A stretch of 5,061 nt of DNA. Source: a virus (lineage: Duplodnaviria; Heunggongvirae; Uroviricota; Caudoviricetes). The notes under the pieces were generated by a model. That model had not been told where the DNA came from. It was given only the letters and a program-made list of their open reading frames with translations, and made no database searches. The stretch is taken from positions 1 to 5,061 of the IMG/VR virus record IMGVR_UViG_2585427729_000001; one strand, given 5' to 3'. Shown piece after piece: positions 77 through 4,929 of the stretch (position 1 is the first letter of the stretch; every line of letters starts with the position of its first letter). The position numbers were made by a program, and so were the translations under genes.

Positions 77-700
77 CTAACGTGTGATCGCATTCAAAAT
101 GTTGTCTGCGATTGACTCTTCCTTGTGGCATTGCACAACCAGAGCGTCATACAGCGGCTTAACAGTGCGTGACCAGGTGGGTTGGGTAAGGTTTGGGATT
201 AGCATCGTCACAGCGCGATATGCGGCGCTTGCTGGCATTCTTGAATAACCGACGCCTTTACATCTTCCGCACTCTTTCTCAGCAACTATCCCCCACTGCT
301 CTGTTTTGGCTATATCAACCGCACGGCCTGTACCGTGGCAATCTCTGCATCTTGCGCCCGGCGTCGCGGCACTACGGCAATAATCCGCATAAGCGAATGT
401 TGCGAGCACTTGCAGTACCTTTGCCTTAGTATTTCCTTCAAGCTTTGCCACGCCACGGTATTTCCCCGATACCTTGTGTGCAAATTGCATCAGATAGTTG
501 ATAGCCTTTTGTTTGTCGTTCTGGCTGAGTTCGTGCTTACCGCAGAATGCAGCCATTCCGAATCCGGCTTGTGATTGCGCCATCCCCATAGCAGCCATCA
601 CATCAGTACCGGAAAGAGAGTCAGAAGCCGTGGCCCGTGGTGAGTCGCTCATCATCGGGCTTTTTGGCGAATGAAATTTAGCTACGCTTTCGAGTCTCAT
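77..700 (-). CDS. Q: Late-gene antitermination protein Q, lambda-type, 207 aa
   Basis: The track ORF 77..733 has an N-terminal extension; the likely true start is the ATG at 700 (MRLESVAKFHSPKSP...), preceded by GAGGGGAAG. The protein matches lambda Q nearly residue for residue as I recall it, including the Cys cluster CRDCHGTG...CGRCKGVG (zinc finger). The stop lies directly upstream of the pR'-like promoter. Confidence 0.93.
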   Translation of the reverse strand: MRLESVAKFHSPKSPMMSDSPRATASDSLSGTDVMAAMGMAQSQAGFGMAAFCGKHELSQNDKQKAINYLMQFAHKVSGKYRGVAKLEGNTKAKVLQVLATFAYADYCRSAATPGARCRDCHGTGRAVDIAKTEQWGIVAEKECGRCKGVGYSRMPASAAYRAVTMLIPNLTQPTWSRTVKPLYDALVVQCHKEESIADNILNAITR

Positions 701-711
701 CGTCTTCCCCT

Positions 712-846
712 CTATCCTTTGCAATGACACCACACTTCAAACATTCGTTTCACAACCTCACGACAGTAGAAGCCGTAAGCATCGCGGGTAAGATCGTAGC
801 GATTGCCATAACGCTGGCGCATATATCGTTCGAATGCTTTGTTCAT
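712..846 (-). CDS. Small hypothetical protein, 44 aa, YlcG-like by position (between rusA and Q); not in the supplied ORF track
   Basis: Hand translation of the minus strand from ATG at 846..844 gives MNKAFERYMRQRYGNRYDLTRDAYGFYCREVVKRMFEVWCHCKG, ending at TAG 714..712. The start overlaps the rusA stop as ATGA, GGAGAA lies a few nt upstream, and the stop is 11 nt before the Q start. Basic, with a C-x12-C-x-C cluster. The position matches the small ylcG ORF between rusA and Q in DLP12-type prophages. Confidence 0.6.
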   Translation of the reverse strand: MNKAFERYMRQRYGNRYDLTRDAYGFYCREVVKRMFEVWCHCKG

Positions 847-1205: not shown

Positions 1206-1492
1206 GGCTTAATCTTCCCCTCCTTCAGCAGTATCGCCTGCGTCCTGATCACGCCTTCGAGGTGGTAAAGTCTGGCGTCTTTGTTGTCGAGGTTATGGGT
1301 GCGTCGGTCGATTTCATCGTGACACGCGCTACAAGCCCATGCGCCGATCAGGTCGTCAGGCTTCATTCCCGTTCCGCAAATTCCAGCCATCCGGTAATGT
1401 GCCAGAACTGTAGTTTCAGGGTTGCCATTGCATACGCCGTAAATACGTACCTGGCATTCTCTGCCGCGAGCTTCTTTGCGTAGGTTAGCCAT
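1202..1492 (-). CDS. ybcO: YbcO-like DUF1364-family protein, putative Zn-binding nuclease, 96 aa
   Basis: Protein MANLRKEARGRECQVRIYGVCNGNPETTVLAH...CSACHDEIDRR... has the same length and Cys/His pattern as the DLP12 prophage YbcO that sits immediately upstream of rusA. RBS GGGGAGG lies about 8 nt upstream; TAATG overlap with the preceding gene. Confidence 0.85.
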   Translation of the reverse strand: MANLRKEARGRECQVRIYGVCNGNPETTVLAHYRMAGICGTGMKPDDLIGAWACSACHDEIDRRTHNLDNKDARLYHLEGVIRTQAILLKEGKIKP

Positions 1493-2214
1493 TAAGCAGC
1501 CTCCCCTGTTACTTTCAGCATTCCGTTATCGAGCAGCTTTCTGGTCAGCCACTGTTGACCACACCCGGTGATTTTTGTGGTGAACGATATCTGTATTCCG
1601 TGATTTGTGTTGACCGCTGTTTCTTTCACTGTGAAATAGCCGCGATCCATATATTCCTGCATTGGCACATTGCGCCGGGAACCTGAAGCAATAAGGATTT
1701 TGTGATCGCGCATCCACGCAAACAGTTTGTTTGGACCAATTCCAACAACCTTTGCAAAGTTTCCAATCAAAATTCCGCTGGCCTCGCCAACGCGATCGGC
1801 AAACTCAACTTTAGGTGCGGCAATTGCTAGCTGGTTTTCCAGTTGCATTTTCTGCTCAGCAAGGTCAGCAGCAAGGCGCAACGCTTCTGGTAGCGTTTTT
1901 GGGATATTAACCGCAGCTTCTTCAAGCTCTCGCCAACGGTCAACAAGGCGAGCCGTGAATTCCGGCGACAACTGGGCTACAACGACAATACTGTCTCGCT
2001 TTCCTTGTTCGCCTTCGAATACATACACACAAAAACTTTGATTTAAGCCTAACCCATTGATTCTTCCACAATCCTCAATTTGAGGAAGCCGGATAACACC
2101 ATTTTTAGCCAGCGTTTCGATGGTACGTTTCACATTGTCATGACGCTTACCAACCAACTCAGCGATTTCAATGCTTGTCATTTTTATGGCATTGCCATTT
2201 ATTAACTCATTCAT
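1492..2214 (-). CDS. Phage regulatory protein of the Rha/antirepressor family (N-terminal Rha-like DNA-binding domain plus C-terminal KilA-C/Ant-like domain); Roi-like, 240 aa
   Basis: The N-terminus MNELINGNAIKMTSIEIAELVGKRHDNVKRTIETL is the characteristic Rha-domain signature. The C-terminal half (...FADRVGEASGILIGNFAKVVGIGPNKLFAWMRDHKIL...) resembles antirepressor KilA-C domains. RBS GAGGAAG precedes the ATG; the start overlaps the upstream small ORF by 8 nt. Confidence 0.85.
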   Translation of the reverse strand: MNELINGNAIKMTSIEIAELVGKRHDNVKRTIETLAKNGVIRLPQIEDCGRINGLGLNQSFCVYVFEGEQGKRDSIVVVAQLSPEFTARLVDRWRELEEAAVNIPKTLPEALRLAADLAEQKMQLENQLAIAAPKVEFADRVGEASGILIGNFAKVVGIGPNKLFAWMRDHKILIASGSRRNVPMQEYMDRGYFTVKETAVNTNHGIQISFTTKITGCGQQWLTRKLLDNGMLKVTGEAA

Positions 2215-2383
2215 CGTCTTCTTCCTCGTACATTGAGCTATTCGGATCGCTCATCAGCTCTGCGCAGCAATCGGAGCACACGTGAACTTCCAGCACATGC
2301 AGCTTCTGACCGCAGTTAGCGCACGTTAAAGCTCGCTCGACGCTTTCTTTCTGGTATTGAAGGGTTTGGGATGGGCTAAGCAT
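2207..2383 (-). CDS. ninF: NinF-like small Cys-rich protein, 58 aa; not in the supplied ORF track
   Basis: Hand translation from ATG 2383..2381 gives [58 protein letters not shown], ending at TGA 2209..2207. It has a CxxC...CxxCC putative zinc-binding motif and an acidic tail. GGAGA lies upstream. Size and position (after ninE/ninX, as in the P22 order ninE-ninX-ninF) fit NinF; I also recall lambda NinF as very similar. Confidence 0.7.
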   Translation of the reverse strand: MLSPSQTLQYQKESVERALTCANCGQKLHVLEVHVCSDCCAELMSDPNSSMYEEEDDE

Positions 2384-2733
2384 TATTGGATTCTCCGCAT
2401 CATGAGAAAGACAATCATGGCGGCACGGAGTGGATTGTCATATGCGACACCAACATTCGGTCCGGCATCATCAAACAAGTCCCTTGCGTTGTCTGTGGCG
2501 CACGGCATTGAGGGATTGTCTAAAATTATGCTGATGTTGTTTTCAGTGATAATCGGCCATGCGTCTGCTGGGTTATTGCAGTAGTCGTACCATCGATAAT
2601 TGCCATTTGCTTCATTGCCAACAGACCGTCCATCTGCGTTGTGCGGATAACCTAATGGTTTTGCCCCAACTATCGCTTTAAATACTCGCTTGTTAATTTC
2701 AAAATCACTTAACTGTGAATAATCCATTGTCAT
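2383..2733 (-). CDS. Hypothetical phage protein, about 116 aa, NinX-like by synteny; function unknown
   Basis: ORF in the track as 2383..2769. The probable start is ATG 2733 (ATGA overlap with the ninE stop) or ATG 2727 (better spacing from GAGG). Protein [60 protein letters not shown]... has no motif I can assign to a known enzymatic function. It sits between ninE and the NinF-like gene, where P22-type phages carry ninX. Confidence 0.75.
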
Positions 2734-2906
2734 TTCCTCGCACGATGTCTTAGCCACCGGATATCCCACAGGTGAGCCGTGTAATTGAAGGTTTTTACGT
2801 CAGATTCTTTTGGGATTGGCTTGCGTTTATTTCTGGAGCGTTTCGTTGGAAGGTATTTGCAGTTTTCGCAGATGATGTCGGTGATACTTCGTCGTTGTCG
2901 CCTCAT
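2730..2906 (-). CDS. ninE: NinE, 58 aa, function unknown
   Basis: The track ORF 2730..2996 is over-extended. The true start is likely ATG 2906 ([58 protein letters not shown]), with AGGAGGG 5 nt upstream and an ATGA overlap with the methyltransferase stop. The sequence closely matches lambda NinE as recalled. Confidence 0.85.
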
Positions 2907-3430
2907 GCCGCCCTCCTGACGCCCTGCCCGATCGCCATCAATGCCGCTTTGGATACGGTAGTAAACATCCGTCGAGGACTGATGAACGGTCGCCAAATCA
3001 GCAGCATGGAGCCTTTGCTGTTTCCCTTCTTCTCCAGCCCTGTCGATGGTTCGATAAAATTAATCCGTCCATCAGTGATAATGCGAACTTCGTCGACACT
3101 CTCCAGAGCCTTGCTGAACCATCCGACAGACATATCCTCTGGCACAAGCATCACTACCGTCTGTCGTTGTTGTATGCACTGCTCAGCGGCTTTTTCCACC
3201 CACGGCCTGATATTGCTGTACGGTGGGTTATTCCAGATTGCACCGTGGCTTATCCACTCAGAATTTAGCGCGTCGTCAGCCTCAGTTAGCCAGTGAGCGC
3301 ACAGAGCATTTTTGTCGCTCGCTGCCGAATCCAGCCAGAATCCAAACTCAATATCCAGTGCATCAAAAAGCCAGAGCGGCGTTTGCCAGCAGTCCTTGTC
3401 GTGTGATGGCGTATTTGATTTGATAGTCAT
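2903..3430 (-). CDS. dam: Phage Dam-family DNA N6-adenine methyltransferase, small orphan methyltransferase of about 175 aa
   Basis: Track ORF 2903..3490; the probable start is ATG 3430 ([26 protein letters not shown]...), overlapping the ninB stop as ATGA. It contains the NPPY catalytic motif (IWNNPPYSN) and the N-terminal D-x-W-x-TP signature typical of the phage Dam family. No restriction endonuclease gene is adjacent. Confidence 0.88.
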
Positions 3431-3867
3431 GCAGCCCGATCTCCCCATCGCGCTTTCCATTCGAGAGCCAGTCGCGCTTCGTCTGACCACTTAACGCCAC
3501 GCTCTGTACCGAATGCCTGTATAAGCTCTAATAGCTCCGCAAATTCGCTTACACGCATCCTGCTGGTTGACTGGCCTATTACCACAAAGCCATTCCCGGC
3601 AAGGTTAGGAACAACGTCCTGCTGCTTTAATGCTGCTGTAAAAACGCACTTCCAGCTTTCTGCATCCAGCCAGCGACCATGCCATTCAACCTGACGAGAG
3701 ACGTCACCAAGGCAAGCCCAAAGCTTTCGATTCTGGTCTAAGCTGCGGTTGCGTTCCTGAATGGTTACTACGATTGGTTTGGTTGGGTCTGGAAGAATTT
3801 GCTGTACCGCGTGAATAGCGTTTTGCTGATGTGCTGGAGATCGAATTTCAAAGGTTAGTTTTTTCAT
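3427..3867 (-). CDS. ninB: NinB (lambda Orf), recombination mediator, 146 aa
   Basis: The track ORF 3427..3885 starts at a TTG. The real start is probably ATG 3867 (MKKLTFEIRSPAHQQNAIHAVQQILPDPTKP...), with GGAGAGGGAAG upstream. It matches lambda NinB/Orf as recalled. Confidence 0.9.
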   Translation of the reverse strand: MKKLTFEIRSPAHQQNAIHAVQQILPDPTKPIVVTIQERNRSLDQNRKLWACLGDVSRQVEWHGRWLDAESWKCVFTAALKQQDVVPNLAGNGFVVIGQSTSRMRVSEFAELLELIQAFGTERGVKWSDEARLALEWKARWGDRAA

Positions 3868-3884: not shown

Positions 3885-3916
3885 AATAAAAAGGCCTGCG
3901 ATTACCAGCAGGCCTG
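3885..3916 (-). terminator. Intrinsic (rho-independent) terminator between ren and ninB, lambda tR2-like
   Basis: The minus-strand RNA would read ...CAGGCCUGC-ugguaauc-GCAGGCCUG followed by UUUUUAUUUGGGGG. The stem is plus 3892..3899 paired with 3908..3915, with an 8-nt loop and a U-tract 3' on the minus-sense transcript. It lies in the only sizeable intergenic gap (3868..3940). On the plus strand no T-tract follows, so it is unidirectional. Confidence 0.75.
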
Positions 3917-3940: not shown

Positions 3941-4231
3941 TCATCTTTTAACTCCATATACCGCCAATACCCGTTTCATCGCGGCACTCTGGCGACACTC
4001 CTTAAAAATCAGGTTCGTGCTCACCTTTCCTTCCCGTTCTTCTCTGGTAGCGAACCGGTAATACACCGTTCGCCAGACCTTACCTTCGATAACCAGAAGA
4101 CCTGCCCGTGCCATTTTAGCCGCGGCCTGATTTATGCTGGTTACTGTTGCGCCTGTTAGCGCGGAAACGTCCTGTGCACAGAAGCTCTTATGCGTTCCGA
4201 GGTAATGAATAATTGCCTCTTTGCCCGTCAT
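3941..4231 (-). CDS. ren: Ren protein, 96 aa
   Basis: Protein MTGKEAIIHYLGTHKSFCAQDVSALTGATVTSINQAAAKMARAGLLVIEGKVWRTVYYRFATREEREGK... matches lambda Ren as recalled in length and sequence. ATGA overlap with the P stop. Confidence 0.9.
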   Translation of the reverse strand: MTGKEAIIHYLGTHKSFCAQDVSALTGATVTSINQAAAKMARAGLLVIEGKVWRTVYYRFATREEREGKVSTNLIFKECRQSAAMKRVLAVYGVKR

Positions 4232-4929
4232 ACACTTGCTCCTTTCAGTCCGAACTTAGCTTTAATTTCTGCGATCTTCGCCAGAGCCTGTGCTCGATTT
4301 AGAGGTCTGCCGCCCATGACAGGAAGTTGTTTTACTGGTTCAGGTATAGTCTCACCACAGTTAATTCGCGCTGTCATACAGGTCAGCTCATCGGCAGCCT
4401 TACGCCGTAATTCCGCGTCAGTCAGCGCATTGGCCCGCATGTTCTGGTACAGGTTGGTAACCAGCCAGTAGTGCGCGTTTGATTTCCACGGATAAGACTC
4501 TGCATCTGGATACAGGCCACGCTTCCGGCAATACTCGTAAACCATATCAACCAGCTCGCTGGCGTTTGGCAGTCCGGCAATAACAGATGCTTCTTCACGA
4601 CACCAGGCAACAAACTGCCCGGGTGATGGCAGGAATGGTCGATTCTGCCGACGGGCTACGCGCATTCCTGCGTTAACCTGTTCCATCGTGGTGATCCCGT
4701 TTTCCCGGAAAGCCAGAACCCACTGGCGGCGGATTTCGTTCAGTTCGTTCTGGTCACGGTTAGCCAGGCTCGCCGGGAAAGTTGCCAGTAACTGGCTGAA
4801 CACACCGTTGATGATCTGCGCTACCTGCTGTACCTGCGGCTTTTCGTCGTACTGTTCCGGCATGTTGTTGGCGATCCGACGCATCTGCTCACGGTCAAAG
4901 TTAACCATCTGTGCGGCGATGTTTTTCAT
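4228..4929 (-). CDS. P: Replication protein P (helicase loader), 233 aa
   Basis: Protein MKNIAAQMVNFDREQMRRIANNMPEQYDEKPQVQQVAQIINGVF... matches lambda P as recalled, full length 233 aa. The start overlaps the O stop as ATGA. Confidence 0.93.
   Translation of the reverse strand: MKNIAAQMVNFDREQMRRIANNMPEQYDEKPQVQQVAQIINGVFSQLLATFPASLANRDQNELNEIRRQWVLAFRENGITTMEQVNAGMRVARRQNRPFLPSPGQFVAWCREEASVIAGLPNASELVDMVYEYCRKRGLYPDAESYPWKSNAHYWLVTNLYQNMRANALTDAELRRKAADELTCMTARINCGETIPEPVKQLPVMGGRPLNRAQALAKIAEIKAKFGLKGASV

Follow-up and report, generated by a model that had tools for sequence, protein, structure and literature searches.

The window, which is the whole 5,061-nt stretch of DNA that we analysed, holds genes in the order P-ren-ninB-dam-ninE-ninX-ninF-roi-ybcO-rusA-44-aa ORF-Q, all on the minus strand. 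The gene under study is an exact ATG-started minus-strand ORF of 240 aa, as the sequence-only reading had it (Table 1), and its coordinates are identical to those of a RefSeq coding sequence (WP_001003979.1 in NZ_CP151038). A Shine-Dalgarno-like sequence (GAGGAAG) lies ~9 nt before the ATG. The gene overlaps ninF by 8 nt and ybcO, a DUF1364/HNH neighbour, by 1 nt. Its position between P and Q confirmed the earlier view that it belongs to the delayed-early nin region and lies outside the immunity region. In the PR operon, ren and ninB are separated by a tR2-like intrinsic terminator, which precedes roi and occupies the position of the nin-region terminator annotated in P22. The 44-aa ORF (712–846) was considered as NinH and rejected, because it is not NinH-like.

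The window was 99.9% identical to part of the E. coli 19KM2326N chromosome. The host record contains a complete 35.5 kb lambda-like prophage beside ybhC, which encodes int/xis, a LexA-family CI, cro, cII, O, P, the nin region, Q, lysis genes and Kil, as well as lambda-like head and tail genes and a second Rha-family gene after the lysis cassette. The annotated prophage record contains no immI/ant-type control region and no arc/mnt-type genes. PADLOC defence models gave no match for Roi or its neighbours.

A gene comparable to roi of HK022 and HK97 had been expected at this position, and the link proved stronger than claimed (88–95% protein identity). The gene shares ~90% DNA identity and 88% protein identity with HK022 roi over its full length (240 or 241 aa), and the protein is 95% identical to HK140 Roi. 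Identity to genes annotated as roi in HK620, HK140, Stx2 phage 86 and other Stx phages was ~95% at the DNA level. The order ninF-roi-ybcO-rusA-Q is common to HK022, HK97 and HK140; across the HK022, HK97, HK620, HK140 and Stx phages the same gene, 240 or 241 aa long, follows ninF and precedes ybcO-rusA-Q or ninG. Because the identity to HK022 roi is this high and the neighbours are the same, the gene is HK022-type roi itself, which is already known and very common. We found 219 phage records that match roi, 214 of them over at least 80% of the gene. Homologue searches returned 7288 matches in one search and 6897 cluster representatives in a second.

Table 1. Features of the roi locus. Positions refer to the window unless an accession is given.
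Feature	Position	Strand	Basis or remark
roi CDS, 240 aa	1492–2214	−	ATG-started ORF; orthologue of HK022/HK97/HK620 roi
Rha-like winged-helix domain, aa 12–99	1918–2181	−	Pfam PF09669 Phage_pRha
Variable specificity patch, aa 22–63 (recognition helix and wing)	2026–2151	−	Entropy and diversity profiles
Long helix joining the two domains, aa 108–144	1783–1893	−	AF2 secondary structure
ANT/KilAC domain PF03374, aa 126–228	1531–1839	−	Pfam; nearly invariant among roi alleles
IHF consensus core AATCAATGGGTTA, gene nt 153–165, codons I52-N53-G54-L55	2050–2062	−	Consensus match; wing tip
Perfect 7-1-7 dyad TCCTCAA-A-TTGAGGA, gene nt 129–143, codons L43–D48	2072–2086		Candidate Roi operator
6-1-6 palindrome ATGGCA-A-TGCCAT, gene nt 17–29	2186–2198		Conserved; invariant roi 5' end
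6-1-6 palindrome TTTCAC-A-GTGAAA, gene nt 579–591	1624–1636		All five allele types; invariant region
tR2-like intrinsic terminator	3892–3915	−	8-bp stem, 6 GC pairs, then T-run
HK022 counterpart of the dyad, CTGCATTGCAG	AF069308, ~34785–34795		
HK022 counterpart of the IHF core	AF069308, 34807–34819		

Both domains that the sequence-only reading had proposed, a Rha-type N-terminus and an Ant/KilA-C C-terminus, scored above their Pfam gathering thresholds. The C-terminal match was strong (PF03374, E = 4.4e-32, 111.1 bits against a cut-off of 25.3, model positions 1–106 of 108), and the N-terminal match was a marginal pass (PF09669, E = 6.6e-8, 33.5 bits against a cut-off of 29.9, model positions 1–91 of 91). 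PHROG 63, 'anti-repressor Ant', covered the whole protein (E = 2.7e-95). The NCBIfam model for the Rha subfamily (TIGR02681) scored 17.3 bits against a cut-off of 45.95, with a match limited to aa 12–36, and no NCBIfam model names the protein. Since the TIGR02681 cut-off was missed, the N-terminal domain is, on these profile scores, Rha-like at the Pfam level only and falls outside the Rha subfamily proper. BLASTP of Roi gave 30% identity to P22 Rha over aa 14–57 and 46% identity to phi80 Rha over aa 8–35.

The AF2 model of the N-terminus (pLDDT ~90) predicts a strand at aa 11–13, helices at aa 14–21 and 25–38 and a beta-hairpin at aa 45–52/58–67. This is a winged helix-turn-helix (wHTH) topology, with the predicted wing tip encoded by the DNA that holds an IHF consensus core, described below. 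The long predicted helix that joins the two domains is a possible dimerisation helix. On structural superposition, the predicted KilAC model may resemble MerR/excisionase-type DNA-binding wHTH domains. A sequence search of solved structures found no match, and a Foldseek search against the PDB returned nothing significant.

We assessed variation in 114 distinct roi coding sequences from ~230 loci. Protein variation across these alleles fell in aa 22–63, with a little more in the linker (aa 99–131), and the KilAC domain was nearly invariant. The patch at aa 22–63 comes in five major allele types. The window allele is of the HK140 type up to aa 46 and is distinct and unique in aa 47–63. All differences between the window protein and the Roi proteins of HK022 and HK140 lie in the patch, save for R218C, which falls in the 'TxKG' motif of KilAC; the window gene thus differs from both in having its own patch allele and this change. 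This pattern is typical lambdoid mosaicism, in which a variable specificity module is joined to a constant module. The protein variation between alleles clusters around the segment that holds the IHF core and a DNA dyad.

We searched for the IHF consensus (WATCAANNNNTTR) and observed one match in the 5 kb window, where 0.14 was expected. This match lies inside roi, on the coding strand. The nin regions of HK022 and HK140 each have a single match, at the same roi codons as in the window. All but one of the 114 distinct roi alleles have a single match, located at gene nt 153, and these 113 include all five patch types. At its four free positions the core varies between alleles (TGGG, TGAT, TAAC); its consensus bases do not vary, nor do the codons ATC, AAT and TTA, the last being a rare Leu codon. 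Homologues from Yersinia, Pantoea and Serratia (49–63% identity by tblastn, with different C-termini) keep ATC-AAT-AAC-TTA. In these homologues all four of the IHF-core codons are kept, whereas the codon is kept at only 38–51% of other identical residues. The I-N-x-L-G peptide is itself conserved, so protein constraint could explain part of the conservation of the core DNA.

The IHF consensus occurs twice in the 35.5 kb prophage. The second match, TATCAATTTGTTG, lies in the att P' arm beside int, within the 135 bp that separate int from ybhC. We take it to be the canonical lambda H' site, so it served as an internal positive control for the scan. P22 rha contains an identical IHF 13-mer (AATCAATAACTTA) at the homologous K-I-N-N-L-G codons, and this is one of four consensus matches in the 41.7 kb P22 genome. 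The core was absent from phi80 rha and from the second rha of the prophage itself, and is thus not universal to Rha genes.

Once the sequences were placed in register on the IHF core, a perfect dyad became apparent upstream of the core, at a distance of 9 nt, or 17 nt when measured from the centre of the dyad (Table 1). A survey of 134 distinct sequences found several versions on the same centre: CCTCAA.TTGAGG, CCTGCA.TGCAGG, TCCTGCA.TGCAGGA, (T)CCTCCA.TGGAGG(A), CCCCA.TGGGG and CGCCA.TGGCG. At least six versions keep their symmetry through compensatory changes. The window dyad is of the CCTCAA.TTGAGG class, whereas that of HK022 is of the CTGCA.TGCAG class. GCTCAA.TTGAGC stands at the dyad position in a homologue without the IHF core. 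Perfect arms of at least 5 bp were present at this position in 85 of 112 distinct IHF-positive sequences; exceptions include the major allele type B, which has one mismatch, and a few homologues in which the dyad is degenerate.

A synonymous position takes part: the third base of the Pro codon (CCT/CCC/CCG) and, 9 nt downstream, the second base of another codon (A/G/C) change together. Across 25 distinct sequences, 83.4% of cells were paired compared to 66.9% in shuffles (0/500), and double-change cells numbered 23 compared to 9.2 expected (0/500), values that are inflated by relatedness and come from the same, related sequences from which the dyad was derived. Changes on both sides were seen at 5 of the 7 pairs. 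Pairing fell to 25–49% in slid-partner controls. Under a synonymous-shuffle null, a dyad arose at the same position in 2–3.5% of shuffles per allele. The six outer pairs lack G-T intermediates, and only one nucleotide lies between the two arms; these two properties indicate a DNA dyad and not an RNA hairpin.

The class of dyad also tracks the motif in the recognition helix: KRTIETL occurs with CAA, K[IV]SI[ED]RL with GCA, KQSIERL with CCCCA and KR[STA]IERL with [TG]CCA. The helix motif and the dyad are only 40–60 bp apart and are inherited together, so we did not count their match as evidence.

Palindromes with a single-nucleotide gap and arms of at least 6 bp were more frequent in roi than expected under synonymous shuffling (3 compared to 0.375, P = 0.006). 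The other two lie in invariant regions of the gene (Table 1). Generic repeat searches in and around roi found no operator-like repeat that was consistent across allele types. An inverted repeat at gene nt 255/301 was rejected as an operator; it was seen in three types and is not kept in the window. A promoter and terminator scan gave counts at chance level and no promoter-like site on the coding strand of roi, and an internal promoter in roi was rejected on this basis.

Previous work has connected roi to IHF. The gene is reportedly the determinant of the IHF requirement of HK022. Roi is said to be a helix-turn-helix protein whose binding site lies within roi, close beside an IHF site, and this binding is reportedly stabilised by IHF. 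Single amino-acid changes in Roi are said to permit growth on IHF-deficient hosts. Roi is both annotated and published as a DNA-binding protein. Where the sequence-only reading had roi of HK022/HK97-type phages as needed for lytic growth, secondary sources go no further than 'implicated in lytic growth' or state that it 'inhibits activation of the lytic cycle'. The title of the original study gives the phenotype as inhibition of phage lytic growth by Roi in IHF mutants (Clerget & Boccard 1996, PMID 8763934).

The Rha proteins of phi80 and P22 (orf201), which define the N-terminal domain family, resemble Roi in two respects. They carry a related PF09669 domain (30–46% identity by BLASTP over 28–44 residues), and they too are reported to inhibit growth in IHF-deficient hosts; in the phi80 record, rha carries the annotation 'DNA synthesis inhibition in IHF- hosts'. 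Unlike Roi, these Rha proteins have no KilAC domain, and their genes belong to the late operon, where they follow the lysis genes, and lie outside the nin region.

To a known gene, the present analysis adds two elements within the coding sequence, a conserved IHF core and a co-varying dyad. On sequence grounds, core and dyad probably form Roi's own binding site. We infer that they correspond to the Roi operator and IHF site reported in 1996 within roi, with the qualification that the site mapped in HK022 may not be the dyad. The best explanation, and one that we consider somewhat probable, is that Roi binds the intragenic dyad in a complex stabilised by IHF, that this binding is probably autoregulatory, and that loss of IHF unleashes an activity of Roi that inhibits phage growth. 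It fits with the phenotypes, as roi and rha are both inhibitory without IHF and P22 rha shares the IHF 13-mer.

In this explanation, the Rha-like winged helix would be a sequence-specific DNA-binding module whose recognition helix and wing vary by allele, and the near-invariant KilAC module would probably be an effector or oligomerisation part. Roi, probably as a dimer, would bind the 13–15 bp dyad (2072–2086) in its own coding sequence. IHF bound at 2050–2062 would bend the DNA and so stabilise the Roi complex. The Roi–IHF complex would most likely limit Roi dosage by autoregulation, and may also modulate read-through. Autoregulation is the most likely role because the complex would form ~130–165 nt into roi, in the path of transcription from PR and upstream of Q. 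Without IHF this control would fail, and Roi would become inhibitory to phage growth, the phenotype published for roi and rha. DNA binding and the effect of IHF are taken from the literature, and we infer dimer binding and the regulatory outcome; as roi contains no promoter-like site, the regulatory outcome is conjecture. The core and dyad together span a 37 bp cis segment, which makes the 30-year-old question of how Roi and Rha render lambdoid phage growth dependent on IHF testable by synonymous changes. These elements could also show what separates the five Roi specificity types, including those of Shiga-toxin phages.

A more far-reaching form of this explanation, which we offer tentatively as a possibility, is that the operator is self-encoded. 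The DNA that codes for the wing would hold both the dyad operator and the IHF site, and the dyad would diversify through compensatory changes together with the linked recognition helix. Specificity and target would thus form a recombination-proof cassette of ~130 bp. If true, a coding sequence would here contain an immunity-like specificity system, part of which P22 rha would share, and the IHF dependence that roi and rha impose on phage growth would be explained.

An alternative is that Roi acts on the host. The KilAC domain would then target RecA and the SOS response or the division machinery, an excess of Roi without IHF would block growth, and the N-terminal module would only set Roi's own expression or regulate phage genes. 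Roi has the architecture that defines the AriS-like family, an N-terminal AntA/B, Bro-N or pRha domain followed by a C-terminal KilAC. Proteins of this family, represented by AriS of Listeria phi10403S (LMRG_02920), are likewise annotated as antirepressors, and other activities have been demonstrated for them. The KilAC part of AriS alone inhibits SOS on overexpression. CreP, a stand-alone KilAC protein, is bacteriostatic and causes filamentation, and inhibition of cell division has been described for CreP, phi11 gp07 and P1 KilA. A KilAC that stays nearly invariant while the N-terminus diversifies is expected of a module aimed at a conserved host target, and the annotation of phi80 rha as an inhibitor of DNA synthesis also fits.

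The evidence for a host-directed KilAC, however, comes from overexpression, distant hosts and distant homologues, and the native level of AriS did not inhibit SOS. AriS is a distant Firmicutes-phage sequence, and its N-terminus is AntA/AntB. A resemblance of the KilAC model to MerR/excisionase-type wHTH domains would fit a second DNA-binding module as well. The prophage already encodes Kil for division inhibition, and phi80 Rha and P22 Rha have no KilAC domain and yet show the IHF phenotype. P1 KilA, P1 Ant1, phi11 gp07 and CreP share with Roi a KilAC domain with the 'AKxLG' and 'TxKG' motifs (A154-K155 and T216-G217-C218-G219 in Roi). They differ from it in that their N-terminus is KilA-N, Bro-N, AntA/B or none, in that they are reported antirepressors and/or division inhibitors, and in that no report describes any of them as binding, with IHF, to its own coding sequence. 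We consider a host-directed effector unlikely as the main explanation; it can coexist with IHF-stabilised binding of Roi to the intragenic dyad.

It is also improbable that the IHF core and the dyad are functionless by-products (of wing-peptide constraint, common ancestry and a post hoc search) and that the target of Roi lies elsewhere. The conserved I-N-x-L-G peptide and the descent and recombination that relate the allele types to one another would favour such a reading. So would the facts that the dyad was first noticed by eye, that its statistics come from the sequences in which it was noticed, and that it is imperfect in type B and in some homologues. Against it, the co-varying third base of the Pro codon is synonymous, at least six versions of the dyad share one centre, and pairing collapses in the slid controls. 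The codons TTA and ATC/AAT are kept where 49–62% of other identical residues changed codon. The IHF consensus scan is specific, with one of its two matches in the prophage falling at the att P' arm.

The sequence-only reading had raised the possibility that Roi is an antirepressor against heterologous prophage repressors, with effects on superinfection and cross-induction. In such a role Roi would bind and inactivate a CI-type repressor, that of its own or of a co-resident prophage, and so favour induction or cross-induction. This is not supported by our data, and we consider it very unlikely. The names would suggest it, as the Pfam entry for the C-terminal domain is 'Phage antirepressor protein KilAC' and the best PHROG is 'anti-repressor Ant', and P1 and P7 Ant1, which carry KilAC, are cited as antirepressors. 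The label derives, however, from KilAC names and not from tests, so the automatic name 'antirepressor' is no evidence for that function, and Roi itself is annotated and published as a DNA-binding protein. The CI of this prophage is of the self-cleaving LexA family, and there is no Arc/Mnt-type immI control region in the annotated record. An antirepressor of the P22 Ant or P1 Ant1 type would be expected to lie in an immI-type region under its own repressor or antisense control and to be expressed before prophage derepression or independently of it, and the placement of roi is different. Because roi lies downstream of the tR2-like terminator in the delayed-early operon, Roi would be made only after derepression and antitermination, and therefore cannot start the induction of its own prophage. 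Several Stx phages have both roi and a distinct ant gene, and a Pfam search of Roi detected no P22-Ant domains.

Finally, we rejected the reading of the dyad as an mRNA hairpin that affects roi translation or stability, which is extremely improbable: compensatory base changes are also a hallmark of RNA helices, but a single-nucleotide centre makes the innermost pairs impossible in RNA, although conservation and covariation extend to these pairs, G-U intermediates do not occur among the outer six, and the RNA stem would be only 5–6 bp.

The gene is widespread: hundreds of sequenced lambdoid and Stx phages carry roi, as do most E. coli genomes. Natural disruption of the gene by IS629 occurs in some O157 Stx2a prophages.

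Outside the window, the prophage has another gene with a Rha domain, and Roi and Rha therefore both occur in one phage. In the annotated record this gene is placed behind the lysis cassette, a position that matches that of rha in P22 and phi80. A consensus scan of the prophage showed no IHF consensus match within this gene. We observed such a match in P22 rha, where the 13-mer AATCAATAACTTA is identical to the IHF core in HK140-type roi. The P22 genome contains only four IHF consensus matches, including this one. Upstream of the 13-mer, inspection by eye revealed only a weak 4-4-4 dyad (CGCA-TTTT-TGCG).

Natural Roi fusion variants were of two kinds (proteins P0077/P0073 and P0002/P0001). One fusion joins NinB aa 1-76 in frame with Roi from K23 onward; it arises via deletion of dam-ninE-ninX-ninF, and helix 1 of the wHTH is lost as well. 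In the 304-aa variants, part of an additional Rha-like N-terminal module (MSSREIAELTGKRHDNVLRDI...) reads through into full Roi. At a Yersinia vastinensis locus (L008, ~4001-4700), two Rha-N-type modules occur in succession. The first encodes VNNLG, lacks the IHF core and terminates at a stop; the second, ~470 nt downstream, has the window-type IHF core AATCAATGGGTTA but lacks the dyad. This two-module locus may be decaying or rearranged.

We found three further perfect palindromes in roi, all kept in every allele type. Synonymous shuffling showed that palindromes of the 6-1-6 form are enriched in the gene (P = 0.006). The core GCAATGC of the further palindromes resembles the HK022-type dyad core, GCATTGC.

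Coordinates of features in the window, the P22 genome (L231) and the annotated prophage record (L233)
Feature	Position	Strand	Remark
IHF consensus match in P22 rha	L231:39835-39847		gene nt 261-273; K-I-N-N-L-G codons
Palindrome ATGGCA-A-TGCCAT	window 2186-2198		in roi
Palindrome TTTCAC-A-GTGAAA	window 1624-1636		in roi
Palindrome CAAACA-AAC-TGTTTG	window 1719-1733		in roi
Second Rha-domain gene	L233:16008-16532	-	174 aa; phi80-Rha-like
Terminator-like hairpin AGGCCTGC...GCAGGCCT + T-run	window 3892-3915	-	ren/ninB gap; strong, intrinsic type
44-aa ORF	window 712-846	-	between rusA and Q; RefSeq hypothetical protein WP_001030161.1
roi codon 218	window 1561-1563	-	Cys
Q	window 77-700 (RefSeq)		longest ORF 77-733
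NinX	window 2383-2727 (RefSeq)		longest ORF 2383-2769
NinE	window 2730-2906 (RefSeq)		longest ORF 2730-2996
Dam	window 2903-3430 (RefSeq)		longest ORF 2903-3490
NinB	window 3427-3867 (RefSeq)		longest ORF 3427-3885

Residue 218 is Cys in the window's Roi; the equivalent position holds Arg in other Roi alleles and mostly Lys across the wider KilAC family. The residue is part of a 'TxKG' motif and adjoins the invariant G219. Only 5 of ~27 loci sharing the window's N-terminal type have Cys218. Cys218 might be an attenuating variant of natural origin. An IS629 insertion disrupts roi in some Stx2a prophage types of E. coli O157:H7 (PST1-3 and PST1-6), and the authors of that study speculated that the disruption could raise toxin production (PMC4587872). 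These interrupted copies bear on the question of whether roi is dispensable.

The hairpin between ren and ninB matches lambda tR2 in position. Because it resembles a terminator, all genes 3' of it, including roi, should need N antitermination. The 44-aa ORF occupies the place held by NinH in HK140 and HK97; direct comparison showed no similarity to HK140 NinH, and a family search gave no match. Compared with the RefSeq starts, the longest mechanical ORFs were too long for several genes. The RefSeq starts leave 4-nt gene overlaps, typical of translational coupling; the overlap of roi is 8 nt with ninF and 1 nt with ybcO.
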